A DNA stretch of 64,000 bases, from the NCBI GenBank assembly GCA_032718475.1, contig JAUCBJ010000137.1, positions 38,805 to 102,804 of the forward strand, in the 5' to 3' direction. This stretch comes from Nemertoderma westbladi (Eukaryota; Animalia; Xenacoelomorpha). Position numbers and translations under genes: made by a program. Of the stretch, positions 6,745 to 44,846 are shown piece after piece (the first letter of the stretch is position 1; the number at the start of each line of letters is the position of its first letter). The notes under the pieces were generated by a model. That model saw nothing but the letters and a program-made list of their open reading frames with translations. It made no database searches and was not told the origin of the DNA.

Positions 6745-6753
6745 ATAACAGTT
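6745..6753 (+). promoter_or_regulatory. Non-canonical primer-binding position of A (ATAACAGTT), complementary to LTR 6002-6010
   Basis: Directly abuts the LTR end; no TGG; the reverse complement AACTGTTAT lies at 6002-6010 and 40097-40105. Confidence 0.5.
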
Positions 6754-6810
6754 TTTGTCTTTATTGCAGTAAGCAATAAAGTTGAAAGTACCGGTCGACC
6801 GGTAAACCTG

Positions 6811-7048: not shown

Positions 7049-7224
7049 TCCAGTATAAGTACAATAGTATTATTCGATTTGATTATTGTATACCGGTAGG
7101 TCTTAGTACTTAATCAGGGAACGGCCGCCCTGGTTTTTTATTGAGATTTTACTTATTTCTGTCGGTTTTATTTACATGTAAGTTAATATTGAGCTGAAGA
7201 CGTGTAAGTCTGCTCAGATTGTTC

Positions 7225-18325: not shown

Positions 18326-18332
18326 CCGCTCC
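18326..18332 (-). promoter_or_regulatory. Short polypurine tract of B (GGAGCGG)
   Basis: Plus-strand CCGCTCC abuts the LTR; same heptamer as A's PPT at 39662-39668. Confidence 0.75.
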
Positions 18333-20579: not shown

Positions 20580-21339
20580 GCCTCGCGTATATACATATAT
20601 ATATATCCCAATAAGTGCCGTTACGTAACCAATTACACTGTGGGTAAATCAGTTAGATGTCGCCGAAGGACAGACCTCCCGAACCCCCCCGCCTTCCAGC
20701 AGTTCAGGTTCGACTCTCTAGATCCCGTATCTTCCTAACTAACTATCCTCTAACCTATTCCCATGCATAGCGCAAAAACTTTGGAGATAAACTGGCCGTG
20801 ACCAACTCACTTTTTGATGCCCAAACTACTCCCATTACTCGTACTAAACTACAGTAGTTAGAAAGGACTATAGCCACAATACTCGACTATACCAAACCCA
20901 CAGGTTTGATAATCGAACATCACACATCCTGCAAACTACTGAGTGGGGTCCATGTACGCCTCTGGTGCTACTAACCTTTAGCACCTTAGTTGCACTGTTG
21001 GCACCAATCTGTGGAAGTTGCTAAACTCAATTTACACTCCTACGTAATATAGCCGTCACCATGGTTTTCTAAATGCTATTTTCCAGGCTTCACGACTTTT
21101 CAAATTACTGTTTATCTATAGACGAATTCTAAAACGCGTCTATACACAGCGTCTGGAATTGTCTTGGGTTCACTTTTCTAAATTTTTAAAATTTTAATTT
21201 TTCCAAAAATTTTGAAGATAAAATTTTGTTTTTTGATACCCACCAGACAAAACTTAACGCAAATCACCACAACCCCGCTCCTATGCATTTCCTTGTATTT
21301 GCATACGAGGAATGCATACGAAGTGAGTTGCGTCCAACA

Positions 21340-24300
21340 CTAATTCTGTTTTGAGGCAGGAGACAAACTATAATCTCCCGTCTCGATACGTGTCTCCTCT
21401 AACAACACGATATCTTGGACCGGTCGGTCCAAGGTGTGTAAACCATTAGTTTTACACTTCTTTGGGTGCGGACACTTGCACCTAATTTTCACAGTGACTG
21501 TGCGCACTATGTTTTGCACGTCTGGGTGTATATGCAAGATCACTCCCGTCTCCCAATACTTTCTCTTGACAATAGGTTCGGTTATCAGTACGTAATCTCC
21601 CTTTTGGAGACTCCGAACCGTTTTGTACCACTTTGTTCTGGTGGATATGGTGGGAAGATAATATTCCCGCCAATATTCCCAGAATGTGTACGCCACAAAT
21701 TGTGTTACTTTCCAGCTTTTACGACTATATAGGTCGGCACTAATGGGTTCTGATGCCGGCACAAGAAATGCTGGACTCTGCATTAGCAAATGATTCGGCG
21801 TTAATGCAACACCGTCTGGCAACATAGCTATCGGCCTCGAGTTTAGGGTATGCTCGATTTCAATGAAAGCTGTGACCAGTTCGTCGTCGGTAAGTTGTTT
21901 GTTCACAGGCAATGTTTTGGCAATGGCCTGCTTTACAGAGCGAACTAAACGCTCCCAACTTCCTCCTCTCCAAGGACTTTCTGGAGTATTAAATCTCCAC
22001 TCTACTCGTTGCGGCAAAAGTGCTGCAGAAATTTCCTTATTCTGTGCCGCTTTATGAGCCGCGTTCAACTCGCATATTCCCCCCGACAAAGTTTGTACCC
22101 TTATCGGAGTAGAACGCCTTTACTAGTCCTCTCCTGGCCATAAATCTCTTTAAGGCCAGGAGCAGAGATTTGGTCGACATGTCTGCCACACGCTCAATAT
22201 GTATGGCTCTACTAGCCATGCATGTCAGTAGCAGACCCCATCGCTTGTGGGTCAGCCGTCCACTCTTTGCTTCAATCGGACCAAAACAGTCCACCCCTGG
22301 GTTCGTAAAGGGTGGGTCATATGCCTGCACTCTCGCTTCCGGGAGTTCAGCCATCTCCTGTTCCAATACTCTGGCGTTCACCCTCTTGCAAACCAGACAG
22401 GCGTCATACATAGTGCCTGCTGCCCTGCTTGGCTGCAATAGAATGAATCGCTGTCTCGCTGCCGACAAACAGTGTAACCTTCCCGCGTGATGCAACCTCT
22501 TATGTATATCCCATAAAATCGCTCTTTGCAATTCTATTGGGTGACTAGGGATTATCACTGGGAACCTAAACTGTGAGTTAATGTCGACAGTCTGGATTCT
22601 CGATCTATGACAAATCAAACCCTTATGGATTAATGGACTCCATTTTCTAAGGGGTTTATAGAGAACTGGTCGTTGAGCCGATAATAGATGGAATTATTTT
22701 GGGAAGGCACACATTTGATAATGTTTCAAATGCTTTAATTCCGCTTGATCAATCTCATCCTCTGTCAGAGGTTGTTTCAATTTTCGAATTCGCTCACTAT
22801 TAGTGCTCAATGGTTCTCTCAAATGTTCCGAATGTTTTATACAAAGGTACGAAACGTATCGGCTTAACCACGCAGTTCTTTTACAAATTGTCAGCCAAGA
22901 GGCAGACGAATTTAGTAATTTGTCATAAACACTGCATGACTCTAATGCCAGCGACGGTTGTCCGCTAACTAATGGAAGTTTCGAATCCAAACCCGCAGGT
23001 TTGGAAACCAAAGGCTCCATTGTGTCGGTCATTTTCTGTCCGTCACTTACCAATTGTGACTCCGATTTAGTCTGTAAGGGTGGTTTTATGTCATAACTTA
23101 CCCTTCCGGACCTAGTAGTCACGTAAGTCTGTTGGTCTGACAGGTCTCCGGGCCGCTCCAATGACTCTTCAGGCCGCTCCAATGACTCTTCAGGCCGCTC
23201 CAATGACTTAAGTTTGGCTTTAGACTTCGACTTAGAGACTTTCTCCACCTTAACTTCTGCATCTTCAGGCATCGGATTGGTCACTATCTTTAGTCGCTCT
23301 GGCCAATGTTCCTGTGTCCTCGTTAGAAAATCAGGTCCATGCAACCAAAACTCCTGCGACTCTTCCTGACAGAATTCCGCCGGCATTGCACCTCTCGAAG
23401 TTATGTCGGCCGGGTTCAACACTCCCGGACAATGTCTCCATTGTTCCTTCGTCGAAAAATCAACGATCTGAGCGCGTCTGTTGGCCACAAATGTCTTTAG
23501 TGCAATATTGTCAGCCGCAATGTATACTAACACCAAGGATGCATCCGTCCAATAGAATAAGGTCAATGTCGTGTCTAATTCCTCTGTTATTTGCTTACTT
23601 ACCTCGACCGAAACTACAGCCGCCTGTAACTCTGCATGAGGGACAGTCATGTATTTGACCGGCATTGTCTTTGATCTAGAAGTCACAAAAGCCGTCTCAA
23701 ATTTGTCCTGACTTACCTCTCGGCGAAGGTAGGCTACCATACCAAAGCCGGTGTCACTTGCGTCGCTAAATAGATGCAGTTCTAAATCAGCTGGGAATAC
23801 CAGCTGATTCGGAAAGTAGGAACGGGGTACATCTATATTTTTCAATAGATGCAACTCGGCTTCCCACTCCCTGCACTGCTTTGCATGTATAGGAGATATT
23901 GGTTCGTCCCACTCTAGGTCGGATAACCAAATTTTCCTCATGCACGCTCGTGCCTGTAATATAACCGGACTGATAAAGTTCATCGGGTCAAATAGTCTAC
24001 TCAAAGTTGATAAGCAAATTCTCTTTGTCAAAACTTTGTCTGGGCTACTGGGCTCAAATCTAACTCTTACCTGGAACTTATCTGAGTTCGGGTTCCAAGC
24101 GAGTCCCAGTACTCGCGCCATGGGAATTGGTTCTACCCCCAATTCTATGTCTCCGCTCCCGCGATCTTTCACCGGGAACGATTCTAATAGGGCCTCCGAG
24201 TTTGTAGTGAACTTGGTTAGAGGAAAACCCCCTGTAGCCAAGCACTCCTGTAGGCCGTGAGCCACTTCTATGGCTTGTTCCGCTGTGTCCTTGGACACCA

Positions 24301-27300
24301 ATCCGTCGTCCATATAGAAGTTTCTCAAGATGGACTCGATAACCTCTACTGGATACTTACCAATCTGGGCTGTTGCCGTTTTCTTTAAAACAAACAGCGT
24401 GCCATTTGGACTATCGCGGGCGCCAAATATCCTAACGTACATCTGATATGTAACCACTGGGCCGGATAAGTCTTCATTCTCAAACCAGAGAAATCGAAGG
24501 CTATCCTGGTCTGCCTTACAGGCTCTTACCTGGTGGAACATCGCCTCGATGTCACAAGTAAATGCGAATCGCCGCTGTCTAAAACGCAACAGTATTCCAA
24601 TCAAATAATTATTCAGGTTGGGACCATCCATCAACTCTGAATTCAGGGACATACCTCTATAGACTGCTGCGCAGTCGTTGACTACTCGGACTTTGTCTGG
24701 CTTGTCAGGGTGAGTCACATAGTGGTGTGGAAGGTAATAAGTCTGGTCTGTCACTAAGTCAGGGTCCTCTACCTTCCCAGCAAATCCCTTGGCGAAATAG
24801 TTGTTGATCTGGGCGCAATACTTCTCCCTAATGTCCGGATTCTTCAACAACCGAGCCCTTACTCCGTTTAATCTTTTCAAGGCTAAGTTGTAGTTGTTCT
24901 CCAGCTTAGGTGGTTGTCGACGCCACAACATTCCAGCTTCAAAATGTCCAGTCGGTAGCAGACGTATGGTGTCTTCCATCATCTCCAACGACCGTTTCTC
25001 ATCAGTAGACATGGCTAGGTCATATCCACCGGGTTCCATTGCGTCCCTATCCAGCCATTCGACGGTTCTGGCTCCTGTCTCGAGGTCCTGGTGTATCAAT
25101 TCCTTCTGTAATTCCTCCTCACTGTATTGGAAAATGTCTAGGTCTCGATATTTAGCCACTTGACCCTCCACTATGTCTGTATAAGTCAAAACGTTAGTCA
25201 GATAAGTAGCGTGGGCCGCTAAACCAGACCCACGGGTCTGATAACAGTAGTGCTCGGGTTCACTATCTGTCTGGTCGTTGTGAAGTGGTTCCGACAACCT
25301 AACATTATCGGGAATCAACTCCTCGTCCGACTCGCTAAAGTCACTATAGTGGTCAATACAGGTTCTCCTAAACTCGTCTAAGTCTGGTGGTTCTACTAAC
25401 GGTGGTTGAATTATAGGCTGTAATTCGTCGTATCTGTCTATTGGCTTGTCGCCACCTGTAAACTCATAAGACATGGGTACTCTTGTATACCAACCTAGTA
25501 TGGTCCTATGGGCATGCGGTCCATTGACATGCGGCTCAGCTGGTCTCGTTTCCCATATCTGGTGTGCGATCAGCTGTTCTGCACCAATCAACATAGAAAC
25601 ATTCCTATAACCTACCTGGTGTCTCGGTATCCTGAGCTTGTCAAAATACTCCTGTGCTATGGGACTCATCGGCGGCACCTTACCTAACTGCCTGCCGAAT
25701 CCCTTCATAGCTAGACACTTAAATCCGTCCAATGGCAAAGCTTTCCGTTCTTGTCGAGTATGTTGGTCTCTCGGAAGTAGGGAATCTAGTTCCACTGAAA
25801 TTCTGTGTCCCTTGAGGTCTCCTACCCCATGCATAGACTTCAACTCTATTTGGATCTCCTCTGCGTCCTGGAAGCTAGAAATGGCTCTCGCCACTTCCTC
25901 GTCGATATAAGATAATGTGGACGCAGTGTCCAACATCACATATATTCGCTTCGATCCCTTATCGCCAGTAAGTTTCACCGGAATCACGCTAAATATTTCC
26001 GACGTGGCCAATGATAAATACGTCCGCGCGCTGGTCGATGAACTATCCGCGGTGAAACCTTGGCAGGTCACTTCTCTTGCGCTCGACTCGCCATCCTCAT
26101 CCGACGAACCTGGTTGGTAACCATCGTCCTGGATGCCGGTGTACGTATTTCTCCTTATCGATACGGGTTCTTTGCTCCCCTTCCTGTGAGGATTTCGCTG
26201 TAAGTAACGGTCCGTCGGGGTGTGGAAATCCGCATGTAGCAACTTGTGATGTAGTCTGCCGCATTCCATGCATCCGTCATTGCTGTTCGGGCACTGCCGC
26301 CGTACATGGCCTGGCGCAAGACATGCCCAACAGGTGTCCAACGTCCGCACTTGAACTCTTCTCTGTTGCGAATTTAATTCTTTGAACCGTCTGCAACTAT
26401 CTAACTTATGATCGTCAGATCTTACCTCCTTTAGTAAACAGTATTGGCAACCTACAAATCCATCCGGCAACTCCTGTTGCTTTAACCTAGGTCTATCTAA
26501 CCGCTCACCTGACCATACTCGCGAGTCTGATCTAAAGGCTGGGGTACTCGAATTATATCTGTCTACTGAGTTATAAGTCACAGTGGTCCTGTCATTGTCA
26601 AAACTTACCATAGACTTACCGGTAACAGGTTTAGACTCCCTCATATTCTCCTCTGAGAAGTTTGATTTCATCTCTGCTACTGCGTCTGTGGCTATCATGT
26701 CATGAATGTGCTGAAGTGTCAACACCTTACCTTGACCCTCCAACTTATTCTCTAATTTGCGCCATTTCTGTCGATAACGCATGTTTAAACGTCTTATTAC
26801 ACTCTTCAAAACTTCGGCGTGATCACCATGATAGAGGTAGATTCACCGTCCTCAAGATGTCCAATGCGTTCGAAATAGCGTTCGCTAAGTTCAACAGCTC
26901 TAACGGAGTTGTAATCCTTCCGCCCTTACCCAAGTCTTCCACTATCGACTGCGCCATCTTGGTTTTATTCCCGTAGATGTCACTAAGCGTCTTCATTGCC
27001 AACTCAAATGCCCTTTCATTGCCGACGAAGTTATCAGCAATGGCTCTAGGTTCTCGATGGAGCATCTGAAGCAAATAGTTGAACTTCTCGTTGGGAGTAA
27101 AGGTGCTGTTGGTTAGCTGCTCGTCGACATAGGTTTTAAAGGTCCTCCAGTGCTTATGGTTGCCCATAAACTTCTGGGGTTGTTGCGTCGGCAGTCCTTG
27201 CCTAGCAGCAAACTTACCTATGTCCCTAAGGGTTGCGTCGTTCCGGGTTAACAAATGGTTTAGTTCCGCAGGGTTGTTAAGTCTGGTCCTTTCCCGGGGA

Positions 27301-29643
27301 TTGAAACTTACCTGCTCCGCGTCCGTCCTTCTTTCCTTATAGTTTCGGGACTTCTGACGTCTCATGTCTTCCTCTTCATCACTTGACTCGGTGTCAGTCC
27401 TTAGCGCTCGCGATGGTTTGCGCGCCGAGGCCCTGACCCAAGCATCTTGTATAATTTTCTCAGCCGAATTTTCGAAATTGGGATTATGAATATTCGGGAC
27501 AGGCGTCCTTACCTGAGGTCTATGTGGTATAGTCTCCTCCGATATGCGTACTCGTTGACTAGGCTGGACTTTATCTAACTCAGGCCTGCTAGGATTTGAA
27601 TTACTTCTTACCTGGGCTGCTTCCTTTAACCGTAGGTTGCTAAGCATGTCCATTATAGGTTGGATGTGCGGCGATATAGCTTGCGCTAAACTAGCACTTA
27701 ACTCATCCCTCGTAATAAATTCCTGGCTAGGGTTCTGTTGTATAGTCGGCTCTATCTGAGTAATCCGCTGTCTCTCATATGATCGCTCTTCCGGTTTAAC
27801 CCGGAAGTTCTCCGTCGAACTGGGTCGGCGCTCCGTCCGCGTATTCCAAACCCGCGGGTTTGGTTCGCCAAGTACCGTCGGAGTTTCTCTAAACTCTTCA
27901 TCGTCGTGTTCGGTGTGTAGTGGTGCGGTGTTCTGATGCCGTGGATTCTGCGCGATAGGTGAAGCACTAATACCAACTGGCGTGCGATATGTAGAGAACG
28001 GTTTAGCGATCCGTGTACTCGTAATAGCTGGACCGGGTATAGGAATTCTGGTCGTCGTCGTCTCGCGTATGGTCGGAGTTCTCGCTTCCTGTTCGGCCTT
28101 CTGCAGTGCGAACAGTTCTCGCAACTCGGTCCCTACACTCGCCCCACATTCTTCGATCATTCGCATCCCCTTCTCGGCGATTTCATTCGCCTTCCTGGTC
28201 CGTTCTTCGCTCTCTAAATTTAATCTCGCACTTTCTAACTGCGCCAGTTTACGTTCTTCTTCTTCCCTCGCTCGTCTCGCTGCGCTCTCTTCTTCCACAC
28301 GCGCCTTTTCTTCATACAATGCGCGTCTTCTTTTTTCGATCTCGAGTTCGCGTTCCTTGCGTTCGCGTTCGAGTTGAAGCTCGCGTTCCTTCTGTTCACG
28401 TTCGAGTTTCTTGCGCTCGCGTTCGAGTTGAAGTTCGCGTTCGAGTTGAAGTTCGCGTTCTCTCTGTTCGCGTTCGAGTTCCTTGCGCTCGCGCTCGGCT
28501 TGAAGCTCGCGTTCCTTTTGCTCGCGTTCCGCTCGTTCGCGCTTACTTATGTCCTCCAACTCTCGTAGCTCTGCGTCCAACTTACGTGTGCGCTTCCGCC
28601 TGTTGTTCGTCCAGTCGGCGTCTTCTCTCCTCCGCCAAGTTGTGAGAAACAAGGGATCTGGCACATATAACTTTCCCTCGCGCGTGACTAACCTGGGAAT
28701 CGCCACTGTCTCTAGATGCATCGTCGGGTGGAGTTAACGTTCTCTGTTGGATATTCTCCGTCGTCGGTAGCACCTGGCCTGGTACCACCACTCCATTCTG
28801 CATCAGCCAGCTAGTAACTTCCCTCTGATAACGGCGCTCTTCTTTATCTTGGATCTCTTCCCGCTCCACTAAGTCTCTCAACTCTGCGTCACTCACCTGA
28901 GTCGCCTGCGCTTGTGATGCCCATAGCAGCCAGTTCTCCGTCCTTACTCGTCGGAATCGCTCCGATAACTCGCGGTGCTCCAACAAGGCTGCTAAAACCC
29001 TGTCGTAAATCCTCATCGCCACGTCGCTCGACTGAGACTCTACTGCCTTCTTCGCTAGGACTGCAAGCTCCTCCGTCTGCTTGAATAACGCTGAGTTGTA
29101 TCCTCTTCTAATCTCTACTAACTCTACCCTCCCGATGTTGGCTGAGTCAGCTAACATCTTCCTTACCTTGTCCGTCGTCCGAGTTATATGTCCGGCATGT
29201 GCGCGAAGTTTCTTCTTTATCGCGATATCAAGTTCTCTCTCGCTTACCTGACTCACACTCGGTGGACTTGAAGGATTATTTCGGGAACTACGGGTACTCC
29301 TAACAGCCGTCGGGACCACGGCACTTACCATACCCACAGGTCTGGAAACCGGGCTCCGGGCTCTCGCTTCTGCTACACTACTCTCCCTATCACTCACCTC
29401 TGTCCGGGCTGCTGTGCGGTCCTTCCTTACAGTAGCGGTAGGGGATCCTAATACTATTATCTCTGGTTGTTGTTCTTCCTCACTAGTCACTGTCTCATCC
29501 TCCTGTTCACTTACGTCAGCGTCGCTCGCTGCGTCGTCATAGTCGGCATTGTCGTCAACAGTTATGTTTACGCTATCGTCAGTCGGTGGTCCAGCCGCCG
29601 TCTCGTAGCTGTCCTCTAGTGCCTCTTTGTCTGAGACACTCAT
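21340..29643 (-). pseudogene. gag-pol: Element B gag-pol, disrupted by frameshifts (~28590, ~26840, ~22080) and an in-frame TAA (22694-22696)
   Basis: E/R-rich coiled coil, KFMGNHKHWRTF, three Cys/His knuckles, MLDTAS protease, FYMDD RT, LFSDAS RNase H, GVDCFGP / SDKGTNF / GSWERLV integrase. Confidence 0.95.
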
Positions 29644-30489
29644 AGTCTAAATAATGTTTGCCTTCCGGCAAAATATCTCGCAAAAGTTCGAGATATAATT
29701 ATAATTTAACCGAAATATGGTCAAATTATTTGTCTAATAATCAGTTGGTCCAAAATGTCAAATAAATTCGCAATGCAATATTGTGAATTTAATGGGGTAT
29801 AGTTATAGCAAATACTAGCACAATATTTAAACAAAATATTATTATATAGCTACTATATAGTATTAAATACCGGTATGACACAAAATAACTTTGAATCTAA
29901 TACAAAATATTCAAAATAAACTTGCCACCCGAATATTTCTAATTTTATATATATAGCTCTAATCAACGTAATTTTAATTTCAAATATTATATGTATCCAC
30001 TAGCGCGTGGCTACATCTTCGGGTTGCGACTCTCTCTAACTCTCTCTCTAACTTGAGCGATTCAAAAAACCATGGCCGGCTAAACCTAAATATCCTAACT
30101 AATAAATTGAGTTCAGCTTCGCAGTTAAACAACCGATAATTTTTACTGCTTCCACAAACACAATGGTGCCAACAGAACAACTAACCTTGTTTGCTGTGAG
30201 ATTCCACGTCCGCATCCAAAGATTCAGGCCCTTCGCTGATTGCAAACCGAACCCGCAGATCCACACGAACCCCAAACTCAGAAGTATCTCCAGATGGTAT
30301 AAAATAACTAAGCGGTTACCTAACATACCGGTACAATACTCTAGAATTTTACAAATAATTTTGACCGAAACTGAATTCTCGCAAACCTAGCTAAAATTTT
30401 CAAAACTTACTAATTACAGTTTGCCCTAAGGCCTAAGGAACTGCTGTATTCGCAATTAGTAAAAACGCACTACCGTACATCCACTGTAT

Positions 30490-30827
30490 GCAGCACAGTA
30501 AGTAAAACAGTACACCAACCTAACAGCCTAAAGAATACTGTATGTGGTACAGCAAAACAAATGTCCTTTCTACCGTACGCAGTAACAGCAATCAGCCTAA
30601 TGTACTGCTGTACTATTGTACGCAACCAGTGAATACAGTAATCTAAACTAACAGCCTAAGAAAGAATACACTCAATGTCCTACTGTACGCGGTAGGCCTA
30701 CAGCAGACAAGAAACGTGCTTTACTGTTGAAGTAACAGTAAATAATACAGTAATCTAATTTAACAGCCTAAAAGAATATACTCTCTGTCTTACTGTACGC
30801 AGTACAGCAAAACAAAACGTGCTTTAC
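30490..30827 (-). repeat. Degenerate tandem repeats in the 5' UTR of B, including a second copy of the LTR-end/PBS motif
   Basis: AACAGCCTAA-containing units; AAACGTGCTTTACTGTT occurs at 30712-30728 and 30815-30831. Confidence 0.8.
30818..30827 (-). promoter_or_regulatory. Non-canonical primer-binding position of B (sense GTAAAGCACG), complementary to an LTR-internal sequence
   Basis: Abuts the 5' LTR; no TGG; the complement lies inside the LTRs at 31773-31782 and 17255-17264. Confidence 0.55.
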
Positions 30828-32843
30828 TGTTAAACAAACTACCCCGGCCTAACCAATAAAGACACAAAACTGCTCTATTTATTAGACAGGCAATCAGGAG
30901 CGTATTATTGCTAATGTGAGGGGCTGCTAAATACAAAACCGCTACTTACCATTAGATGGCGCTAACCTGCCGTCCGCTAATATGTTTTACTAATTTTCTA
31001 CGGCTCCTGCTAATTTCTTGTTCCTTTCTCTACCAATTACTCGATAGAGAGCTAACTGTTCGAATATATGAGCCACGCGGGAATAACCAAAACAACAAAC
31101 CCGAATCGGCTCCCTAAGCTGACTTAAAACGAGTGTGAGAGGTTTTACACTCAGAGTATATTCTTACGCCTAATCTTACTGTTAAAGTACGCCAATGCCT
31201 ACGTCTTTTCTAATCGCGAATACTGGGGGTTCCCTAACGGAATGTGTGAATGCGAGAATATTTAAAATAATCAAAGTGGTACAGTGTTTATTAGGGCTAA
31301 TACCTATAGTGGGACTAAACTTGTCTGCGGCTGGCTTTAGGCCAGCAAATTACTAATGCGTTTTGCGTACTGAATACTGCTATCTAGCTTATTGCCCGCT
31401 AATTCAAATAACCGCCCAGCGTGAATAGTTTACGGTACTCTAATTATTACCTTAGCTACTCTCCGCTATGCTGCGTACTAATTCTTAATTTTACTAATTA
31501 ATTACAGTCACAAATATGTAACAGCCTAAAATACTGTATTACTTTGACCTAATCAGTAATTATTTACAGTAAACTAAGAGATAGAAATCAATCAAAGGGA
31601 AAAGAGCGCCTATCTAAGCATTCGTAATCTTAGGCACACTTTAGTAACACACCAATCAGCGTCTGCAATCACAGCTCGCAATGCGCGATTCGCAATTGTA
31701 CAATCCGCAATGCACGCAATTCGCAATTACACAGCACAATATAATAATTCGCAATACATGCAATTCGTAATTGTAAAGCACGCAGACCTCTCCCGGGTAC
31801 ATCTAGGCTTCCTAACTAACCCAATTCCTGCCCCCTAACGCTACAAATTGAGACAAAATCTGGATCATCAGCCCCCTAATTACTGTACCAGCGAGCTGCC
31901 CCCACGATACAATGCAAATTGCCCGACCGCAACGGTGACCCCCCGCCAGCGTTGCTCGCCTTTGAATCCTCCGCTCCCTTCGTCGCTAACCCCCCGATGT
32001 GCCCACCGCCTACTGGCACCTTAGCCCTCCATTATGCTAATAGCTACCGTAGCGGCGCAGGCAAATCACAAAGTCTGACAGTCTAAAGAAATCCCGTGGG
32101 ATTATTGCGTAGAAAGGAATCACATAGAACCATTAACAAAAGGTAGAAATCATAGTTCCGGTTGTAATTAGCAGTAATCGATAGGATTAATTGAGAAACA
32201 CAATCAAGAATAATCGCACTAGCAAATCATTTTAAGAAATTAATCGAAAATAGCAAATTGCAGAAATACGCTAAAATATCCGTCAAAAAGGTGAATAGGG
32301 ACAGTTCAGCAAGTACAGGGGTGATAGCATGAGCTCTACCGGCAAGCCGCCAATTTATAGGTGATCTGAATGGGGTGATGCAATAGGGTGACTCAATCGC
32401 TCTCCTATTGGCTCTCCAGTCCGCGCTAGCATTAGACCAAGCTGGAAGCAGTTAGTCCAATAAGGAGGCCGGATTGTAGCCCTATTGCTGCCCAAACCTC
32501 AAATTATTACCATATATGGTAATGGATCATGTCCCTGGCTGCAGAATGGCCAGGACAGCGTCCCTATATGCTAGCCCTATTGATGCTAATATCAGCAAGC
32601 ACAAAATCCAGGGTCCGACTAAACTTGCTACCCTGGAACTATCTACATATATCCTAATACAAAATTACGTAGGTAGGGCTACATATTATACAAAATGGAT
32701 GGATTCAAATATATGGGCGTTTTGGTTTCCTTATCTAAATGTCACCACACTGTGCCTTATCTAAATAATTATACTGCACAATAACAAACATATTATACTG
32801 TATGATGGCTAATAATGTGGATACAGCGCCATATACCGTAACA
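30828..32843 (-). repeat. 5' LTR of element B (2016 bp)
   Basis: Direct repeat of 16309-18325; sense-strand TATAAA at ~32354-32359 and CCAAT at ~32408-32412. Confidence 0.97.
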
Positions 32844-32848: not shown

Positions 32849-33712
32849 AGTTTACGCCGACAGATCGCTCGCTTCGGGACGAGTAATACCATGAGATCGG
32901 ATAAGGGAACGAACTTCATTGGTGCCAACAACGAAATCCAGGCTTACGTGAAGGACTGGAACCAAAGACAGGTGGACGATCAGCTAAGGATAACAGCGTC
33001 TAGCTGGACCTTCAACGCCGCCGACGCCCCTTGGTGGGGAGGAAGTTGGGAGAGATTAATTAGAAGTGTCAAGACCGCATTTCACTTTATAGTGCCATGC
33101 CGCGCGTATCTCACCGACGAACTTTTGCGGACATTAATGGAGGAAATAGCTGCCTATCTCAACGAGAGACCGCTTATGCCAGTCTCATCGAGTCCCGATT
33201 CCCTGGAAGCGCTAACACCCGCACACTTCCTACTGAAGAAACATGTAGCCATGCTCCCACGATCGGAGATTGCCGACGGAGACGAATACTGCCGTCGAAC
33301 TTGGCAACTTATGCAGTTGCTATCCCTTCGTTTCGCTGACCATTTCGAGAAACATTATCTGCCCACGCTACAACTTCGAACTAAGTGGTTTGCGCAGCAA
33401 GAAAACGTCAGCGCCGGAGATATGGTGCTTATTGTAGATTCAGACCTTCCACGTAAACGGTGGCAGACAGGTCGTATCATCGAGACTCACATCTCGGATG
33501 ATGGTTTAGTACGCTCGGTAGAACTCGTCGTCATGCGGCGTAACTTCAAGAAGCCAGGTATAATCTTTGAGACGCAACAACTCAACCGCCCAGTTGGTCG
33601 TTTATGTTTACTGGAAAGAGACAGAGAACTCACCGGAAACTATGGAAGGCAAGACACTCTTCCCACGACCACCTCCCTAATTCCTCAAACATCTAGGGAC
33701 TCCCCAACGTGA
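32849..33712 (+). pseudogene. pol: C-terminal part of element A integrase
   Basis: RSDKGTNFIGA, APWWGGSWERLIRSVK, LNERPL, LTPAHFL, GDMVLI, DGLVRSV, RPVGRLCLL. Confidence 0.95.
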
Positions 33713-35337
33713 TACGTCTGGAGTGGGTGTATGACTATATTATTTTATCTATTTTATTATATTTTATATGTGAACATTATTATGTACTTTATTATAATCG
33801 TTTTTATTCAATTTTATTTAGTAGAAGGTTATTTTAGATTATTTGGTAGATTAGTGCAATATATTAGTGTTTATTACGTAATTACATATATATAATATAT
33901 ATTTAGTGTGACGGCGAGAAATAATTTTTCCTTTTCCTTACGGTCCGTATTATATTATAAACACGAGACTACAGTAAGATGAAATATCCGTACTTATTAA
34001 AGTACAATAAAGCCACTACTATATTCAAGTATTATTGGTAGGCAGAGTATTAGGAATGCAAAGTTCAGATCCTCGTGTCTCGGCTAAACCAAGCTCTGGG
34101 TAGACCTTGGAAACGACTTGCCTCTTCACACTGACATTGCTTCGTGCGATATTGCTCTTCTACCTTATATTAAATAATACATGTAGTAGCGTGATGTCCC
34201 TCTAACAGTAGCGTAAAACGCAAATAAATCTGTTAAACCTTTTGACCATCTGTAATTCTAGTCGATTAAGATATCGCGGCACCCACCGATATACTTGAAA
34301 GACAAATTCTAGAATCAGTGGTTAACGTCCCCAGACAAGTTCTGGAATAAATCGGTGCCCATCTTAAATATTAATTTAATATTTATTAAAATCTGTAAAA
34401 TTCAGATCCTTTAAAATTTCTAGTCAATTAAGATATCGCAGCACTTACCGATACTCTTAAAGGACAATTTTATAGAATTAAGGATCCTCAGTCCCCAGAC
34501 ATGCTCTGGAATAAAAATTGTGTCAATTTTAACATCAAATAATAAAATTCACGGGAATAAATTTAAATTCATATTTTTAAATGAATTTCATAAATTGTCA
34601 TTTTGTGCAATTTATAACATTCCCAAAATTCCATTAATTAATAGATCATGGGAGCGGAGATTCATCCTATTGAGTGTATTAGAGTGCGAGAATCTCCAAC
34701 ATATAGTCAATAGCCGATAAAATTAATAAAATCATGCATAAAGAGGATATTGACAATTAAAGAATTATTATTAAATAGCATTCCAGATCTGTATGCATGA
34801 GAATTACCCTAATTCTACCGCTAGCATTCCATAATGTCACCATAGCAACACCCACGCTAGAGCATTAGAAGCAAGTTAAAAGAACAATAGAAAGCTTGTC
34901 CCATTGCATAGCATAGAGAATACATAGCACACTGTTAGTATCCAAGGATACACAGTAATAACGTGACATTCTGGAAGGCACTGACTAACGGACAAATGGC
35001 CTGTATGTGTACAATTGGTGACAGTTGTGTGGAATTTGTGCGTTTATAGGTGAATGTTACTGCTAAAGTATGTTTACAGTAGCTAGTCGCAATTGTAAAA
35101 GTAGCCCAACTCTCCTATAGAAATAACCTAAAGTGGATCCAAGCCTTTGGGACGGACAGTGGAGTGACTTGTGCCGGTTATCGTTGTCGTGCTGTTGCTA
35201 CATGTTGGCGTAAACACCGCGACGACGGTACATCGGCGCTGAGAATCCCACTGTCCGGGGGCAAAGAGAGGTAGGCAGCGATGCCCGCTCGCCTAAACAT
35301 AAACTCATTTTGATATTAATAAACTCAGATAGCAGAT

Positions 35338-38300
35338 ATGACGGAGTTGATAGAAGATGATCTTGCTATTAGGGAGCGATATACTCTACCTTTACAAGCA
35401 TTTGTGGATAGCTTAATACGCGGTGAAGCCGATCCAACCATTACAGAGGACGATGGTCGTTATATCGAACCGCCGATGTCCCAAGAGCAACTTGCGCGTG
35501 AATTGGATTATCGAAAATTCACCGCTCGCTATACGAATCGTAATGGTACGTATATGGACTTCTTAACTACCGGCCATCCTATCGATTTACATGATACGGA
35601 CGATGTAGATACAGAGAGGGAAATGGTTCTATTTAAATATCATACCCAGCGGAGTCGTAACGATAAACCGAGAATGGATCACGAAAATTCTATTCGTAAT
35701 AGACTGAAAAGAGAAAACGTTGAAGAACCGGATAAACGCATCGACTTCAACGAATACCTAGAATTTTTGAGAGAAACCTATCTCAACATCGCCAGTCAGC
35801 AGAACCTAGAGACTCGATATCCTCAAGGTATACATCATGACCCTGTGGTAGAACTCAAACGGCTCTATTTCACTATGATGTATCTTACCGCCGATCGTCC
35901 ACTACCTGTTATCCCGGATAGTTTTGAACAAATGGAAGAATATTGCAAAACTGGAGAACGATCACCCGCATTTCCTCTACAGGACGTACGTCTTTGGTAT
36001 TATTGTGACGAATGCCCTAGACCCAAACAACAAACTGAAAGACATAAACATCCGCGGAGACGTTGCGCTAAACACAGCTTTACGCGTTACACTTACGGGA
36101 GTTTCGAGCGAAACCTGTTCGACGTACCACCTACGATCGCTCGTCTTAAACGATCACTGAATAAACCCATGATCAGAGTTCCGGAATACTCGGTCAGGCC
36201 TCCTCATTCCCTAGTGAGACCTCAAACTCTTGATCCTAACAGTATCACTGATCCTCCCGAACTATATTCCCTGTTCAAAGACTTAGTGTTACCCGAACAA
36301 TTAATCGGTGGTGCTCCGGTAGTGGGTTCGTTAGACATTCGCCCATCCTACTTAGCCGGACTGGGACGCGGGCAGCTAATATCACCCTTTGATCCTTACA
36401 ATCGTCCAGGATTAAACCCGATGCAACCCGCCACGGAAGTCGAGGAGAGCGTTATAAGAAACGCTTTAGACGCTATTCGACAGAAGATCGGAAAGGGAAC
36501 ACAAGATTGTTTAGAGAAACGTAAATTACAACAACAAGTCCAATCGGTGAAGGAGTTAGCCTTGCCACAGTTCGATAGAGAAATCCAAAACCTCGAGGAG
36601 GACATCGAGCTTGGACGCACGTATTCTCTACAAGAATTTTTAGATGAACGCTTACAGAGACAAGCGGAAGAAAATCTACTCGAAGAGAAACACACGAAAA
36701 TGGACGAGAGAGAAGAAGCCGCTTTAGCCCAACCTGAAGCTCAAATCCTTATGACGGATCTCTACTCTAAAACCGTCCGTCATCCCTCGATGATTCCACA
36801 TTTCGGAGACAAACTCTTCGCGACGATACAACCTCAACCGGTTGATATCAGTACAGGATCGCAAAATCTTATCGCTGACGCCCCTATGTTACAGCGTCCG
36901 CCGATCGAGGCCGCTCGTGTTGACGGTATACTCGTTGAACCTCCGGACAATCGAGCGGATCTTGTCCGTCGTATGGTACACGATGTCAACATACGCGCTA
37001 GACCTTTACAGAACTCGTTTTATGGGATTAAAGACCACCCTTATTACGTTAATCTGACTCAATATTATATGGTAAAACCAGAAGACCCGACGCATAATTT
37101 AAAGTTTCTACCACTAATAAATCCTCTAGACATTGTCGAGCTCGAACAATTGCAGAAACATCTGGATCAGTTAGTAAAGGTAAACTCATTTAGAAAACCA
37201 TATAACATTTCTCGAATCGAGAAGGATATAGAACCTCCTTATAATCTCGATGGATTTATTAAAACTCGACTAGTCCATTGGAATCTAGATGTATTATTTG
37301 AAGAAGAGAAAATACAAAGATATGGAAATGTGGAGACGTATACCACTCGGCACATGAAGTATAGTGATCTCCCTGACGCTAACCAATGCGCCACCTTGTG
37401 GCATCCAGTAGGAATGACCCTAGAGAACGCCACCAAGGAGTGGAATGAAACTCTTAATGTTATTGAGATGTATGGAGTTGTCACCTACGATAATGAAGGT
37501 AGCGTTCCGGTCGGAGAACTAGGAACTACGCGCATGATCCACATACGCGGATTAGCTGGTTCTACCCACGTGTTTACTCGAGCGTGTTCCGACGTGATTG
37601 ATTATTCCTTTGAAACTCTCACCGAAACACAAAAGAATCTCCGACATGGACAATTCGAACTCGCGCAGCGTTACGTCATTGACACCGAACGCAAACCGGC
37701 CATGGGTATCGATGGATCGATGTTACCCAGCCCGTACTCGAGATGTTGTTCAATGAAAGAATCCTTAAAATTGGCTCAGCTGTTTATGGAGATCTCCAAA
37801 ACGACTTTCGGAATATGGAGAACATTCCATACCCTTTCGTTGATACTCAGCTGATTGCTCCCTGGGCAGAAGGTCGAGGTTTCTTCCGCACCATGTATGC
37901 TAATACGTCTAGCAACATTACAAAGGTGCAACGAACTTCCATCGGACATCTTGCCTTTCAGGAATACGGATGGAATTTCAAAGTCGGAAATCCCATCAAC
38001 TATCAACAAGTATACGGAGATCATTATTCTCGATTATACTTTGATGGACCATTAACCGCACCTGGCGCCGTGTATAGCTTCATGAGTGTTCCACTCCGTC
38101 CCTCCTTAGCTATCTACACAATCTTTGAAAACACCGCACTTGCCGGTTGGCTAGCCGATGTGTGCAGTCGTACTATACGCGCCCATCCATTAATACTTGG
38201 GACCAAACTCGCTAAGCTAGATGAACATAATAAATTCATCCGCTTCGAATGTTTCCGGCGCTTTTTAACCCCGTTCCGCAACGTGGATAGCCAATTTAAA

Positions 38301-39590
38301 GACCGCGCTTTGACCAAGCTCAGCCTAAGAAACTCAGCTGCAGAGAAGTTGGATAGTGCTGGATTCGCCATTTTCAAAGAGATTTGTATATCGAACTTGC
38401 ACTCCTCTGTTATACAAAGACCTCGAATCCCCACAGGTTATTCTGTCGTGGAAATTCAGACAATAGGTCCACTTGAAGAGACAGACACGCCTACCTCAGC
38501 TATGCACTTGGAAGACGAACCAATATGTCTAGAATCTGAGGAAATTCAGCCTATCGCGCCCCGGAACAGCGACAACGATTACATCATAGAATGGTATCAA
38601 GGTCCACAGTGTCTCACTGCGTACGATTATCGACATGCCAACTATGTTTCTAGGCAACGTTGTCGGTTATGCGAATCGAGAGACCATGTTACGCCCATGG
38701 ACACAAACGTCCGCTGTTCCTATTTCCAAGAACAACCGACGATGGAAATTTATTGCGCATATTGCAGACTCAATAACTTGCATATTTTTGCGGTTTGCCC
38801 TCAATTTATGACTCAATGTCACCATTGTCAACTAAAGGGACACGCCAGTTTCGATTGCCCTTTTAATCACGATTTGGAAAGCGTAGATGAAATGATCACA
38901 CTACGTTACATCAGAGCTTGGGAAGCGAACGCTGATTTACATTGTGATTCGCGCCATCGTTATTATCCTGGACGCGCTTACGAAGGAATTTATGCGTTCC
39001 ATCCTTATCTATTCGCTTCTGTCGAACAGAAATCACGCATATCGAGTTACGAATTACTGAAGCGCGTCGGAGAATGTATTTCAACCAAGTTCGTACGCAA
39101 ATTTCTCAGGAGTGTTAATCCTAGCGACCTTCATTCCTATAACTTAATCAATTATATCCGTCAGGATCCGGACTATGGAGACTTATTTGTTAACTCACAC
39201 CCCGAGTTACAGGAAGTATATCGACGGCCTTACGAATACCGAGCCCGCGAACGCGAGTTGGAAAGAACCATTAAACCCCGGAGGTTTCTAACTGCCTATG
39301 GTCCACCCACGGCTCTCGTTCAGACCACTCGTAAAGGACCCGTAAGAGCGGCTGTCTTAAAACGCGCTCTCAAAGCCGTTAGACCCCTCTCCCCCGACGT
39401 TGATGTCAATCAACCCGGCACTTCGACTGGCGGATACACCGACCATAATCCTACACCCTCTGATGCAATTATATTGCACCCTTCACCCAGGAGTTATAGC
39501 CCTCCTTGTAAAGTGGCTCGCCCCAAAGAGAAAAGGACTCTGGCCAGCTTTAAAAAACTGCGTAAACGCCGTCCGCGCAAGAAAGACTAA
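35338..39590 (+). CDS. Element A accessory ORF3 (~1417 aa if the 1-nt frameshift at ~37731-37733 is repaired): Cys/His domain + coiled coil + DEDDy-like exonuclease + 3 zinc knuckles + basic tail
   Basis: Overlapping 838-aa and 615-aa ORFs join as LPSP-VLEMLFNERILKIG on adding one C; motifs VVTYDNEG, KIGSAVYGD, FVDTQLIA, PLTAPGAVYS; CHHCQLKGHASFDC; KKLRKRRPRKKD; no signal peptide or TM segment. Confidence 0.85.
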
Positions 39591-39668: not shown

Positions 39669-40839
39669 TATAAAAGCTTTTGCGGATATAATCAGTCCCC
39701 TCGCCCGCAAGGTACCGTTATAGGTGTTTTAACGGACATAAAAGTCATTCTTCTATATGTGTGCTTTGGCGGACATGGTAAGGCATAAAACCCGCAATGC
39801 GTCAAATACTCTGGCACAGCTTAGCCTTGATGATTCAGATTACGACATCTAACAGCTGGTTGCTGACATGGAAACGGCCATTGGACACATAGTTCTTTGT
39901 TTAGCTTAACAGCCAATCAGGGCGATTTTTACTATCGAGGTGGAGATTTTTTGCAGATCGTGCTAGGAGTGTTCAGTCTTACTGTTTTTTGTGATACTGT
40001 TGTGTTGTTTCTATCTAGGCCAGGAACACCGGCTCTAGAGTCAATTCGTTTCAGACTTTAGAAGAAACATTAGTAGGCTTAGATTATAGAACGTATAACT
40101 GTTATCGGCACATACATTGTCATATCATATCTTAACCTACCGTCTTAATGCTTTTTACTGTTGTTATTATTTTGTATCAGTTGGTTGAATATTATTTGGA
40201 GAACATCTATAAAGAACCCAAATTTCCCAATTTTCTTGATACACTACAGGTTAGAGAGACAGGTTACATATAGCGATTGCGACTTATATTATCGTGGTTT
40301 GTAGTGAGTTTAATGCTATTTGATAGGCACTACATGAGTCAATTGCTGTTCTCTTTATATATGATAAAATTCATTGACGGTCGGCAGATTAGTGTGCAGC
40401 ATTGTGTGTTACCGGTAGTGTGCATGATTGTGACTGATAACTAAGCATTTCCTAAAGAATGCGCCTCATACGTGAATCATAAGCCTTACCGACTTACCAT
40501 TGTGTTTAGTATAAGTCATATCTCTGTTTACCTAGATAGAGCGCCACGTCCTAAAGGAACTGTTAATATTTCCCGAAAGTGAATAATATTGGTCAGAAAT
40601 TATTTATTAACGATCAATCGAATAATACAGTAAGCTTACACTGCAATAACAATCTAAGCCCTCCGAATCCAGTCTCCCGGGTATATCCAGCGGGTGAATG
40701 GACGCGCACTAGGCTGGCTTCGGCTAATGTTGTGTTTATTGGTATTAAATACTTGTCATATGCTAAAGTCTATTTATAAACCAAAAGACATATAAATTTT
40801 GGCAGGTTAAACTGCTAAAGGTCTTCAAAAGCGCGTACA
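39669..40839 (+). repeat. 3' LTR of element A
   Basis: 1171 bp; begins TA rather than TG; about 5 substitutions versus the 5' LTR by eye; followed by TSD GCCTA. Confidence 0.97.
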
Positions 40840-41944
40840 GCCTACTTTGACTAATCAGATATATGCTTTCTACTGTATATCGTCGTTTAATTCCTTATGA
40901 GTAACAAATATGCAATTTGTGGGTCTCGGTCCAGTGGTGTGCAATATTTAGACATTATATGGGTTTTTACTGTGTAATACCTTGTTTTTGGTTCTTGAGT
41001 AATAAATAATAACTATATTAATGTGTAAAGTTTTACCATTGCAACTTCCTAAGACAGTATATACTGTCTAATGTGCGTTTGCTGTTCATTTGCCTACTTT
41101 TTCTAATCAGATATATGGTTTGTACTGTATGTCGCCGGTTAATTTTTTTATTTTTGATATTGCTTTTTTGTTAATGGGTATAAATAGATACAGTATATAT
41201 ATGCCTACAGTCATTGTACATGCCTACAGTCATTGTTTTTGCATTCTGTCATTTTAACAGACTTTAGACTGATTTAATACAATATATCCTTGATAACGGT
41301 CCTGGAATAGGATCGAAAATTTGGTTTAACTATGACTGCTTTTCTTTTCAACAGTGGCTATCTCCCTTGTTAAACTATATTAGATAATATATACAGTATA
41401 TATAAACAAACTTTCATGAGCGTTCCTGCTATGCGGCAGGTACCCCAAGGCACTTGATAACACTCATAAGAGTTACAGACAGACTCGTAGTGGCGGAAGT
41501 GGGTTAGCGTCTCGTAAAAGCCTTGACACATGGATACAATGGTTGACCACCAAAGTCAAACAAGTTTGATTGGTTGTTTGTAGCTAGGCACCAAAGAAAG
41601 GGCTAAACAACAAACTGTATTGTAATAGTTAATAAAACTGAAATATAATGTTGGTTGCTCATACATGACCCCCCGCAACAAAAGCGATGGACCGGGCATG
41701 GTAAATAATTAATCGAGGCCCTGTCCATCATTCATCCTACTGTATAAATATTTGGCACGCATCAATTTATGAGTGTAATGTGTATTCTTTGTGGGAATTG
41801 GTAATATGGATGGCCTTAAACTGACTTACTGTAGTAATCTACTACCTACAGTATCTACACCTGTACGGCTACACGCATTGTTACCTGTTGTTGGTGTTGC
41901 ACGTATTGTTATTTTACGAATATACTGTACATACGTTTTACACT

Positions 41945-43454: not shown

Positions 43455-44360
43455 GATAATTAATACTACTGCCTGACTGCTGCAGTCCTGTTAGGGCCGA
43501 TTTGTCTCAAGTTTTACATAGACATTCGCGGACCTATGTGTAACTTCATAGAAAAACAAATTTGTAATTTAGGCCTAGTTGATTTCTGGATTTTCCGCTT
43601 CGAGCAGCACGATTGAAAATAGTGAGTTTGGGTTATTTTTTCTCGAAATAGGCCTATACCAGTACTGCACTGCAGTATACTGAAATTTAAATTTTTGCCT
43701 GTTTTTAAATGTGCACCGTTTCCTCAGTTTTCCTTCAATTTCACTGAAAGTGTTGCCTATAGAAAAGACACCCGAGGTCGGGTGTCACAATTGTTTTTAG
43801 TGATGGTTTACTGTGATGAAAATTTTAGGGCAGGAGGTGCCCTTCGCGCAGCACGTGAAGAAATCATTTGTAGAAAAATACCTTGACATATTTATTCGTA
43901 ATTTGACCTAAGCAGCTAAAAGTACGAACAACATACAATATCTGCTTTCAGATACTCACCAACTCACCCCCTAGGACAATTTACTGATTTATGCTAGCAT
44001 ATTCAGATATTTCATCGTGGGGCAGTGGGGTAGGGGTCATAATACACTGTAGTCTGTAATGCAGTAATTCGCTACCGGTAGCGGATTTTAACCTGTTAAC
44101 CAGGGGGGAGGGGGGAGGGGGGGGGGGGGGGTGGCCTAATCTTCAGGCTGTCAGGGGGCAAAATATGATGTGACATCGGTACCACAGCATTACAGTACTG
44201 CAGTAGTATTACCGTTATCTGTTATATTTCTGTATCTTGTAGGCCTAGCTAAAACCTCTGAACTGTCGGTCTGTATCTACCATAATGCTTAACCCTGTAA
44301 CCTTGTTCATCCTTGTGTAGGCTATTTCAGTACTTACAATGTTATAAGTTAATATTATAT

Positions 44361-44846
44361 ATGAAGAGTACCCGTAGCATATTTACCCGCCCAGTGGTCA
44401 TTGTTTCATTTATTGTGTGTTTGGTGATCGCATCTTTAATACTGCAACAGCTATGGCGTTTCCGAAGGTTGAATGTGACTGAAACCAGTAGTAAATCCAA
44501 TTTCATTAACAGGATGGCTTCAAGTAAACAACTTGCTCTGGCTTCCAAGGGTATCCATTCGTTTGACTTCGAGATTTTTGGAAAAGTCCAAAATGTGTTC
44601 TTCCGCAAACAAACTATGAAGAAAGCAAGGACATTGAATGTGGTTGGCTGGGTGCAAAACACGAGACGGGGTACTGTAATAGGGGTGGCTCAGGGCCAGA
44701 CTAGCAAGTTAGCAGTGCTGAAACATTGGTTGGAGAAGGAAGGAAGTCGGGCCTCTCGGATAGATCGAGCCGAGTTCACCAACGAGAGAGACATTGACAA
44801 GGCGGAATACTCAGGTTTCAATGTGGATTCCCGAGATGCTGTTTGA
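44361..44846 (+). CDS. ACYP: Acylphosphatase (start 44361 with hydrophobic N-terminal extension, or 44514)
   Basis: FEIFGKVQNVFFRK and GWVQNTRRGTVIG signatures with catalytic Arg and Asn; GSRASRID; uninterrupted domain. Confidence 0.92.
   Translation: MKSTRSIFTRPVVIVSFIVCLVIASLILQQLWRFRRLNVTETSSKSNFINRMASSKQLALASKGIHSFDFEIFGKVQNVFFRKQTMKKARTLNVVGWVQNTRRGTVIGVAQGQTSKLAVLKHWLEKEGSRASRIDRAEFTNERDIDKAEYSGFNVDSRDAV

Follow-up and report, generated by a model that had tools for sequence, protein, structure and literature searches.

A third gene with a predicted DEDDy-type exonuclease domain and three zinc knuckles in a BEL/Pao retrotransposon of Nemertoderma westbladi

Organization of the locus and the accessory gene

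The window, a stretch of 64,000 nucleotides from a Nemertoderma westbladi contig (GenBank JAUCBJ010000137.1), contains two nested LTR retrotransposons. Element A (5574-40839) is a young, recently inserted BEL/Pao element. Its LTRs (5574-6744 and 39669-40839, forward strand) are 99.7% alike, with 4 mismatches in 1169 nt, and a 5-nt target-site duplication, GCCTA, precedes the 5′ LTR at 5569-5573 and recurs after the 3′ LTR. The 5′ LTR has TG...CA ends, while the 3′ LTR starts with TA instead of TG and ends with CA. Besides the paired LTRs and the 5-nt duplication, the element shows the BEL/Pao domains DUF1759, Peptidase_A17 and DUF5641. DUF1759 (E 3e-12) lies in the gag-protease frame (9097-13542, forward), which has an in-frame stop at its end; Peptidase_A17 (Pao; E 1e-36) and Integrase_H2C2 (E 2e-7) lie in the following frame for reverse transcriptase, RNase H and the integrase N-terminus (13543-16308, forward), and DUF5641 (E 1e-20) lies in the remainder of the integrase (32849-33712, forward), giving the domain order PR-RT-RH-IN. 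The integrase is cut by element B (16309-32843, reverse strand), also of the BEL/Pao type, with LTRs of 2017 nt that are 99.4% alike and a duplication TCTTA.

Between pol and the 3′ LTR, i.e., in the position of env and after a gap of ~1.6 kb from pol, element A carries an accessory gene. It consists of two overlapping forward frames, 35338-37854 (838 aa from the ATG) and 37683-39590 (635 aa), which combined comprise 4,250 nt or ~1,416 codons. The part before the break (35338-37725) contains an N-terminal domain, a linker and the ExoI half of a nuclease; the part behind it (37728-39590) contains ExoII, ExoIII, a knuckle domain and a basic tail. The original prediction had proposed that one small frameshift at ~37731-37733 separates the two frames, and this is borne out: the homology switches frame within 37725-37733, and in all four runs the contigs of other copies deviate by an indel at 37,725. 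By depth, the share of contigs with this indel is 10% in run X2, 15% in X3, 78% in X4 and 100% in X5, the last of which may be an RNA run. Since the break falls in the middle of the nuclease domain, a relative (P0001) has the nuclease in one frame and other copies carry the indel, the sequences support a single gene that is split by one frameshift in this copy. Given the low shares in X2 and X3, a widespread frameshifted subfamily may nevertheless exist.

The coding sequence of the family is under selection. Among the differences listed (40 in all, 39 of them coding, with 1,378 further ones outside this set), 28 of the 39 coding ones leave the amino acid unchanged, whereas random transitions would do so in ~34% of cases (P 6e-6). 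As 35 of these 39 sites are located upstream of the break, the signal comes mostly from there; within the nuclease all three listed differences are synonymous. Sequence comparison thus supports conservation of the accessory gene among the copies of the multi-copy element A family, as had been anticipated. Its placement in lieu of an env gene is likewise confirmed, and the protein contains no membrane segment (best 19-residue hydropathy 1.21). The accessory gene gives no Pfam fusogen match, and the signal peptide, fusion peptide and transmembrane anchor that characterize retroelement env proteins are not found.

Domains of the accessory protein

The N-terminal domain (35812-36105, forward) has a CxxC...CxxH pattern and is predicted to bind zinc. 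It has no match in Pfam or the PDB, but is common to element A and a piece of an accessory ORF in element B (19995-20648, reverse strand; tblastn E 2.9e-9, 35% over 114 aa). The nuclease is absent from element B.

Judging from motifs and profiles, the middle of the protein very likely forms a 3′-5′ exonuclease domain of the DEDDy (RNase D/WRN) type. The ExoI motif (37477-37500, forward), with Asp 37489 and Glu 37495, matches in alignment the D-x-E motifs of RNase D and Pol I as well as P0001, and the ExoII region with the DTQ motif (37728-37859, forward) contains Asp 37791 and fits the reference DEDDy profile better than any other stretch. Both the D-x-E of ExoI and the Asp of ExoII are therefore present, and the order and spacing of ExoI, ExoII and DTQ agree with the family. 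All motifs originally quoted for this region are found, i.e., VVTYDNEG at 37477, RMIHIRG at 37531, the ExoII block at 37728-37793 and FVDTQLIA at 37836. With a custom profile made from 12 exonucleases (RNase D/Pol A) the X read-through scores 8.0 bits and P0001 19.4 bits, values that none of 2000 shuffles reaches, and the same profile puts the accessory ORF first among 1095 six-frame segments of the window. HHalign gives probabilities of 90.3% and 94.2% for the DEDDy match, with the HHalign and HMMER matches spanning ExoI to ExoII only. In the ESM Atlas, 25 of 30 matches of the P0001 domain belong to the PF01612 set (best 0.94); for the window piece the top three matches are PF01612 clusters (0.88-0.89), which are to be regarded as a lead only. 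An exonuclease domain at ~37470-38130 is thus in line with the profile, HHalign and Atlas results, whereas Pfam DNA_pol_A_exo1 (PF01612) matches neither window piece, and P0001 only at E 0.2, below the gathering cut-off. PDB profile searches with the nuclease, knuckle and N-terminal alignments return nothing under E 0.1 and no nuclease. AlphaFold single-sequence models reach mean pLDDT values of only 29.8 and 33.2.

At ExoIII the domain departs from the canonical Y-x3-D. In the original prediction this motif was placed at PLTAPGAVYSFMS, with the Asp replaced and the protein perhaps a pseudo-nuclease. This placement is probably wrong on alignment with P0001, which supports a register 14 residues further on, PLRPSLAIYTIFEN (38091-38132, forward), ending in Tyr (38115) and Glu (38127). 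Compared with P0001, the new register has 9 of 25 identical residues and a score of 30, versus 4 of 25 and a score of -1 for the first one. Against 11 bacterial references the first register has a small advantage (-0.8 vs -6.0), and when bacterial references are aligned jointly it is this register, with its Ser, that falls in the ExoIII column; as the bacterial sequences favour the first register, the new one rests on a single relative. The motif reads Y-x3-E in the P0001-supported register and Y-x3-S in the other, and the domain is classed here as a variant rather than a canonical DEDDy member, the Asp of the family being exchanged for Glu. The literature entries listed on DEDDy enzymes name none that has Glu in this motif. 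In the register favoured by P0001, D, E, D and E occupy the four acidic positions, accompanied by the Tyr, and the final Glu is common to P0001, which is ~30% identical to the window over the aligned nuclease stretch. With all four acidic positions filled, a pseudo-nuclease becomes less likely, and the retention of these positions plus the Tyr in both sequences suggests selection on metal binding.

Three Cys/His knuckles, at 38661, 38754 and 38817, together with a conserved extension that contains invariant E, A, R and G residues, occupy 38661-39000 (forward). This knuckle domain, with 13 invariant columns in 6 sequences, is by sequence the most constant module of the accessory protein, and a knuckle profile to which the window does not contribute picks up this ORF alone (E 5.9e-7; next match E 2). 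The triple zinc knuckle foreseen here is present in number, but the canonical C-x2-C-x4-H-x4-C spacing (zf-CCHC, PF00098) occurs in the third knuckle only, the last gap of the first knuckle being 9 residues, and the Pfam match to zf-CCHC_3 reaches only E 0.39, below the cut-off. That they arose simply by recent copying of the knuckles in gag is rejected, as the knuckle profile misses the gag of elements A and B. The knuckle extension, like the Cys/His domain at the N-terminus, is a domain unmatched in Pfam and the PDB. The protein ends in a basic tail, KKLRKRRPRKKD (39552-39587, forward), whose basic residues are confirmed and which resembles a nuclear localisation signal; P0001 likewise terminates in a basic run.

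Relatives and comparison with known systems

P0001 is a naturally intact relative with the exonuclease followed by three knuckles, as in the window. Word-index protein searches reveal no relatives of either accessory frame, and a profile search returned P0001 alone. In P0003 the ExoI motif reads D-F-K and no ExoIII can be clearly made out; of the three HMMER matches, P0002 was dropped as a repetitive acidic protein. At locus L003 the knuckle domain lies behind another BEL/Pao pol, and the accessory ORFs of L003 and L004 contain neither the nuclease nor the N-terminal domain. L003 is the one of four fetched loci that has pol, none being detected on L001, L002 and L004 (best E 0.13-0.65). Compared with these four loci, nuclease and BEL/Pao pol occur together at the window locus only. 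Because relatives keep the knuckle domain and lose or degrade the nuclease, the nuclease seems to be an optional addition. Searches of viral contigs, prokaryote genomes and plasmids found no relatives, and the best phage matches to P0001 have E values of 5-7 (7 records, 1 annotated as DNA polymerase family A).

The cellular DEDDy family (PF01612) includes RNase D, the WRN exonuclease, MUT-7/Nibbler, Rrp6 and EXD1. The element A protein shares with it the ExoI D-x-E, ExoII and DTQ motifs in the same order, but differs by its score below the Pfam cut-off, the ExoIII Glu, long insertions and the absence, by Pfam, of HRDC, MUT7-C and Lsm domains. Among mobile elements, the rotifer LTR clades that bear a DEDDy ORF3 are of the Ty3/gypsy type. 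As far as the available text describes them, the bdelloid elements Juno, Vesta and Athena/Terminon carry this ORF3 (PMC5408684, PMC6431247), with an acidic set DEED, no membrane segment and undemonstrated activity (PMC5408684). The precedent named for rotifer elements is thus in print, whereas the nematode one did not emerge from the literature searched; the available portions of PMC7998251 and PMC5718144 contain nothing on DEDDy third genes beyond the rotifer case. The element A gene resembles these ORFs in having an RNase D-like DEDDy domain in a third, env-position frame, an altered acidic set and no membrane segment. By description it is set apart by its BEL/Pao host, by the change at ExoIII (Asp to Glu) versus DEED, and by its ~1,416-aa protein with N-terminal Cys/His domain, three knuckles plus extension and basic tail. 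Dada DNA transposons of Laccaria and Ectocarpus also carry a DEDDy exonuclease, but there, in the text available, it is inserted in a DDE transposase and retains an intact DEDD (PMC3706591). CERV of the C. elegans element Cer1, likened here by its available description, also belongs to the accessory proteins of LTR retrotransposons and combines a Cys finger with a candidate nuclear localisation signal, but has no exonuclease and shares exons with gag (PMC10309623). The env genes of roo and mosquito BEL elements occupy the same post-pol slot in the parts available (PMC13524379), whereas the element A protein is devoid of fusogen features and a membrane anchor. The architecture was initially not recognised in BEL/Pao, and no such exonuclease was found described in the mainly open-access literature searched. 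A nuclease third gene in BEL/Pao, conserved in its family and fused to knuckles, suggests repeated independent capture.

Possible function

Env genes are expressed from subgenomic RNA, and the accessory protein may similarly be made from its own subgenomic RNA. The basic tail would drive nuclear import, the knuckle domain would bind RNA, and D, E, D and E would support two-metal catalysis in the 3′-5′ direction on small RNAs, their precursors or antisense transcripts, a trimming or decay that would blunt host RNA-based silencing of the element. The third-gene product is thus tentatively proposed to bind RNA through its zinc knuckles and, by a DEDDy exoribonuclease that is likely active, to destroy or trim silencing host RNAs in the nucleus, a reading that has a real, though not quite even, chance of being right. 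It would make the gene a compact candidate counter-silencing enzyme of an animal retrotransposon. Analogies for counter-silencing, in the text available, are an arenaviral ExoN that suppresses innate signalling (PMC7968707) and a retrotransposon-borne helicase that is a weak suppressor of silencing (PMC6338049).

Less probable, but to be taken seriously, is a real nuclease fold that is weak or dead, the protein acting as an EXD1-like RNA adaptor or as a Rev-like protector or exporter of unspliced element RNA. The Glu (or, in the first register, Ser) at ExoIII, the degenerate P0003 and the nuclease-free L003, L004 and element B are in accord with it, as are, in the available text, EXD1 as an inactive DEDD RNA binder (PMC4712191) and the nuclear Cys-finger protein CERV, which is required for export of Cer1 genomic RNA (PMC10309623). 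It is opposed by the acidic positions and Tyr kept in the window and P0001, where EXD1 orthologues, as far as described, have SDLN or AELE. Rather improbable is an active nuclease in replication, trimming primer or cDNA 3′ ends or acting in the particle as a proofreader for the reverse transcriptase. In its favour, WRN and the proofreading domains of polymerases are DEDDy enzymes, the P0001 knuckles weakly match retroviral nucleocapsid (E 1e-4), and neither element A nor B has a TGG primer-binding start directly 3′ of its 5′ LTR. The available text on Dada proposes 3′-end processing for its DEDDy domains (PMC3706591). Against this stand the very large protein with its basic tail, the related BEL/Pao elements without nuclease (B, L003) and the ~1.6 kb between the gene and pol, which also makes proofreading, among the roles first suggested, unlikely.

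It is very unlikely that the frames, although each is long and open and few contigs of X2 and X3 carry the indel, are separate genes, are joined by a programmed frameshift or are a passively carried host fragment: the break falls inside one domain, synonymous differences are in excess, the sole slippery-type heptamer in 37,600-37,860 lies at 37,832, past the frame change of the homology, and related modules occur in other elements. A chance DEDDy resemblance of another fold would fit the insignificant Pfam and PDB matches, but is just as improbable in view of the concurring shuffle controls, HHalign, Atlas and motif spacing; an env-like fusogen is remote as well, for want of a transmembrane segment.

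Returning to the proposed exoribonuclease, a wider and more speculative extension, doubtful at present, is that third genes other than env form a modular family in BEL/Pao elements, as yet undescribed, whose core is an RNA-binding domain of knuckles plus helix. Here this domain would be fused to an active D-E-D-E-y exoribonuclease. The product would be a single-protein mimic of nuclear machines for RNA decay or small-RNA trimming (Rrp6 with Air2, or Nibbler/MUT-7), by which an animal retrotransposon would suppress piRNA silencing enzymatically. With P0001, an intact relative, the nuclease question can be put to a direct test.

The accessory gene in element A and its nested neighbour

The accessory gene occupies the position of env in A, one of two BEL/Pao LTR retrotransposons in the window. 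It begins at 35338, downstream of the end of A's pol at 33712, and stops 79 nt short of the 3' LTR. The env slot is thereby filled by a conserved gene for a non-membrane protein (maximum hydropathy 1.21). Self-comparison of the window reveals two LTR pairs. The LTRs of A (5574-6744 and 39669-40839) show 4 mismatches over 1169 aligned nt, and A is flanked on both sides by the target duplication GCCTA. Element B lies within A's integrase, on the minus strand at 16309-32843 and with the duplication TCTTA; without it A measures ~18.7 kb. The BEL/Pao markers DUF1759 and Peptidase_A17 are present in both elements, DUF5641 is also found in A, and the RT regions of A and B are 44% identical.

An in-frame stop (13540-13542) lies between the gag-protease and RT frames of A, and the gag-pol of B is likewise split into several pieces; both copies look defective, though their LTRs are young. 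Directly after the 5' LTRs of A (6745-6770) and B (30800-30827) a TGG primer-binding start is absent, so that priming may be unusual or the primer site may lie further inside. Within the 2.35-kb leader of A (6745-9096), 38-nt units are arrayed in tandem at 6769-7072, and a block of about 290 nt is duplicated at 7223-7803. The flanks of A (5016-5566 and 40840-41144) resemble each other (78-93%), which indicates that A inserted into a tandem-like repeat. Elsewhere in the window, all on the plus strand, lie what we take, from their motifs, to be an acylphosphatase-like frame (44301-44846), non-LTR RT-like fragments (54319-55254) and a Ty3/gypsy-like protease-RT frame (61014-62534).

One gene with modular relatives

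In the window the accessory gene is divided over two overlapping frames (35338-37854 and 37683-39590), which the original prediction had joined as a single gene split by a frameshift. Contigs of four sequencing runs (X2-X5), which stem from four studies and carry two organism labels, cover every one of the 30 bins, showing that A's family is multi-copy, and an indel relative to the window is found at 37,725 in all four runs. By depth it accounts for 547 of 705 in X4 (4 contigs) and 11.9 of 11.9 in X5 (2 contigs); the low shares in X2 (14,967/153,723; 13 contigs) and X3 (18,783/127,293; 9 contigs) are hard to interpret because contigs ending near the site cannot show the gap, and a common frameshifted subfamily may exist. 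Among the 40 substitutions listed (1,378 further differences lie beyond these), 39 are coding and 28 of these are synonymous, whereas random transitions would give about 34% (P 6e-6); 35 of the 39 are upstream of the break, and the three listed within the nuclease are all synonymous. The sole slippery-type heptamer near the frame overlap (37,832) follows the frame change indicated by homology, making a programmed frameshift unlikely. With the indel in all four runs and a relative, P0001, that carries nuclease to tail in one frame, the accessory gene is one gene, broken in the window copy. Contigs of three of the four runs also contain, among many other internal deletions, a derivative lacking 2,803 nt (35706-38510), including the middle and the entire nuclease of the accessory gene, which is possibly a non-autonomous subfamily.

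Word-index protein searches returned no relatives. When 1.84 billion representatives were searched exhaustively with HMMER, three matches reached E 0.001 or better, one of which was discarded as a chance match to a repetitive protein. In P0001 (648 aa, E 7e-5) a linker joins the nuclease to three knuckles, after which comes a basic tail; in P0003 the nuclease is degenerate and the knuckle module is present in two copies. A metagenome scan yielded four loci, L001-L004. In L003 an ORF of 929 aa, 1.7 kb downstream of a BEL/Pao pol, carries the knuckle module, and the nuclease was not found in it; pol was not found on L001 (the P0003 contig), L002 or L004. An alignment of six knuckle modules contains 13 invariant columns, some of which form a C-terminal extension (E-x2-A...R...G), and a knuckle profile made without the window matches only the accessory ORF within it (E 5.9e-7), gag being unmatched. 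Residues 159-256 of the protein from A, in the N-terminal Cys/His domain, match a piece of the env-position ORF of B (E 2.9e-9), which has neither nuclease nor knuckles. The gene is thus modular. The Cys/His domain of A recurs in B; the nuclease is shared with P0001 and, in degenerate form, with P0003; and the knuckle module is common to A, L002-L004 and both of these proteins.

The accessory gene of B (19184-20648, minus strand) runs on in several short frames to an Arg/Ser-rich end. Besides the knuckle module, the ORFs L003:5423-8209 and L004:615-3326 share a different N-terminal motif and a C-terminal W-P-x-M-T-x-R-x2-W-G-H-T motif, for which Pfam gave no significant match; they constitute a second branch of the family that is so far undescribed.

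The DEDDy-like nuclease and its active site

A search for DNA_pol_A_exo1 (PF01612) failed to bear out the predicted exonuclease at the level of Pfam: the window pieces have no such match, PF01612 reaches only E 0.2 on P0001, below the Pfam cut-off, and a PDB profile search found no nuclease. Other comparisons favour the assignment. Against a profile of 12 exonuclease domains, from RNase D and Pol A, the window sequence, with an X bridging the break, scores 8.0 bits and P0001 19.4 bits, values reached by none of 2000 shuffles; P0003 scores 3.4, attained by 12 of 2000. By this profile the accessory ORF ranks first among 1095 six-frame window segments, though with E 0.56. For the ExoI-ExoII stretch HHalign gives 90.3% when two sequences are used and 94.2% for three. 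Of 30 ESM Atlas matches to the P0001 domain, 25 belong to the PF01612 set; the best of these (0.94) has 174 features in common and lies in a cluster with PF01612 on 34% of its members. Three unnamed fungal clusters rank higher. The window piece reaches PF01612 clusters at 0.88-0.89, which offers only a lead. Profile, HHalign and ESM Atlas agree in pointing to a probable DEDDy nuclease.

ExoI, with Asp 37489 and Glu 37495, and ExoII, with Asp 37791, can be aligned to the references. The ExoIII spacing P-L-x6-Y occurs in two stretches. The downstream stretch (Tyr 38115, Glu 38127) scores 30 against P0001, with 9 of 25 residues identical, and is the top 25-mer of the entire second frame (runner-up 7); the register of the original prediction scores -1. 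Against 11 bacterial references both fit poorly (downstream -6.0, original -0.8), and a joint alignment adopted the original register. Giving precedence to the closer relative, the downstream register is preferred. The window protein and P0001 would then both contain D, E, D, E plus Tyr, so that the ExoIII Asp does appear replaced, as had been proposed, but by Glu and in another register. This set would differ from canonical DEDD at one position, and catalysis with Glu is putative.

Comparison with known systems and possible functions

DEDDy ORF3 proteins occur in the rotifer elements Juno and Vesta and in Terminons, with an acidic set DEED and no demonstrated activity in the available parts of PMC5408684 and PMC6431247; excerpts of PMC3706591 place a DEDDy exonuclease in Dada transposons. 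With D, E, D, E in the preferred register, the window protein and P0001 would differ from the rotifer DEED. The third genes of BEL/Pao named in the accessible part of PMC13524379 are viral fusogens, and a literature search, with Repbase, most subscription journals and supplements outside its coverage, found no exonuclease described in BEL/Pao. New here are the occurrence in BEL/Pao, the modular architecture, two domains that no library matched and the ExoIII Glu common to the window protein and P0001. The accessory gene is a real feature, whose function can be proposed as follows.

The protein would be made from a subgenomic RNA, its basic tail would bring it into the nucleus, its knuckles would bind RNA and its nuclease would trim RNA 3' ends. 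For RNA binding, weak matches link the knuckles of P0001 to retroviral nucleocapsid (E 1e-4) and to AIR2 (E 0.064). A selfish element retains such a gene only when its spread benefits. Sister elements do without the gene, which lies outside pol; counter-silencing is therefore the best guess, albeit a tentative one. A role as an RNA adaptor without activity, akin to the pseudo-nuclease RNA binder considered originally, or as a Rev-like factor comes second and is rather unlikely: the D, E, D, E set is unlike that of dead EXD1 (SDLN, AELE; PMC4712191, in part). End-trimming in replication ranks third and is improbable. Just upstream of the accessory ATG, the stretch 35290-35337 contains CTAAAC, which resembles a branch point, and a pair of CAG triplets; noticed by eye, they weakly suggest a possible splice acceptor for the subgenomic RNA.
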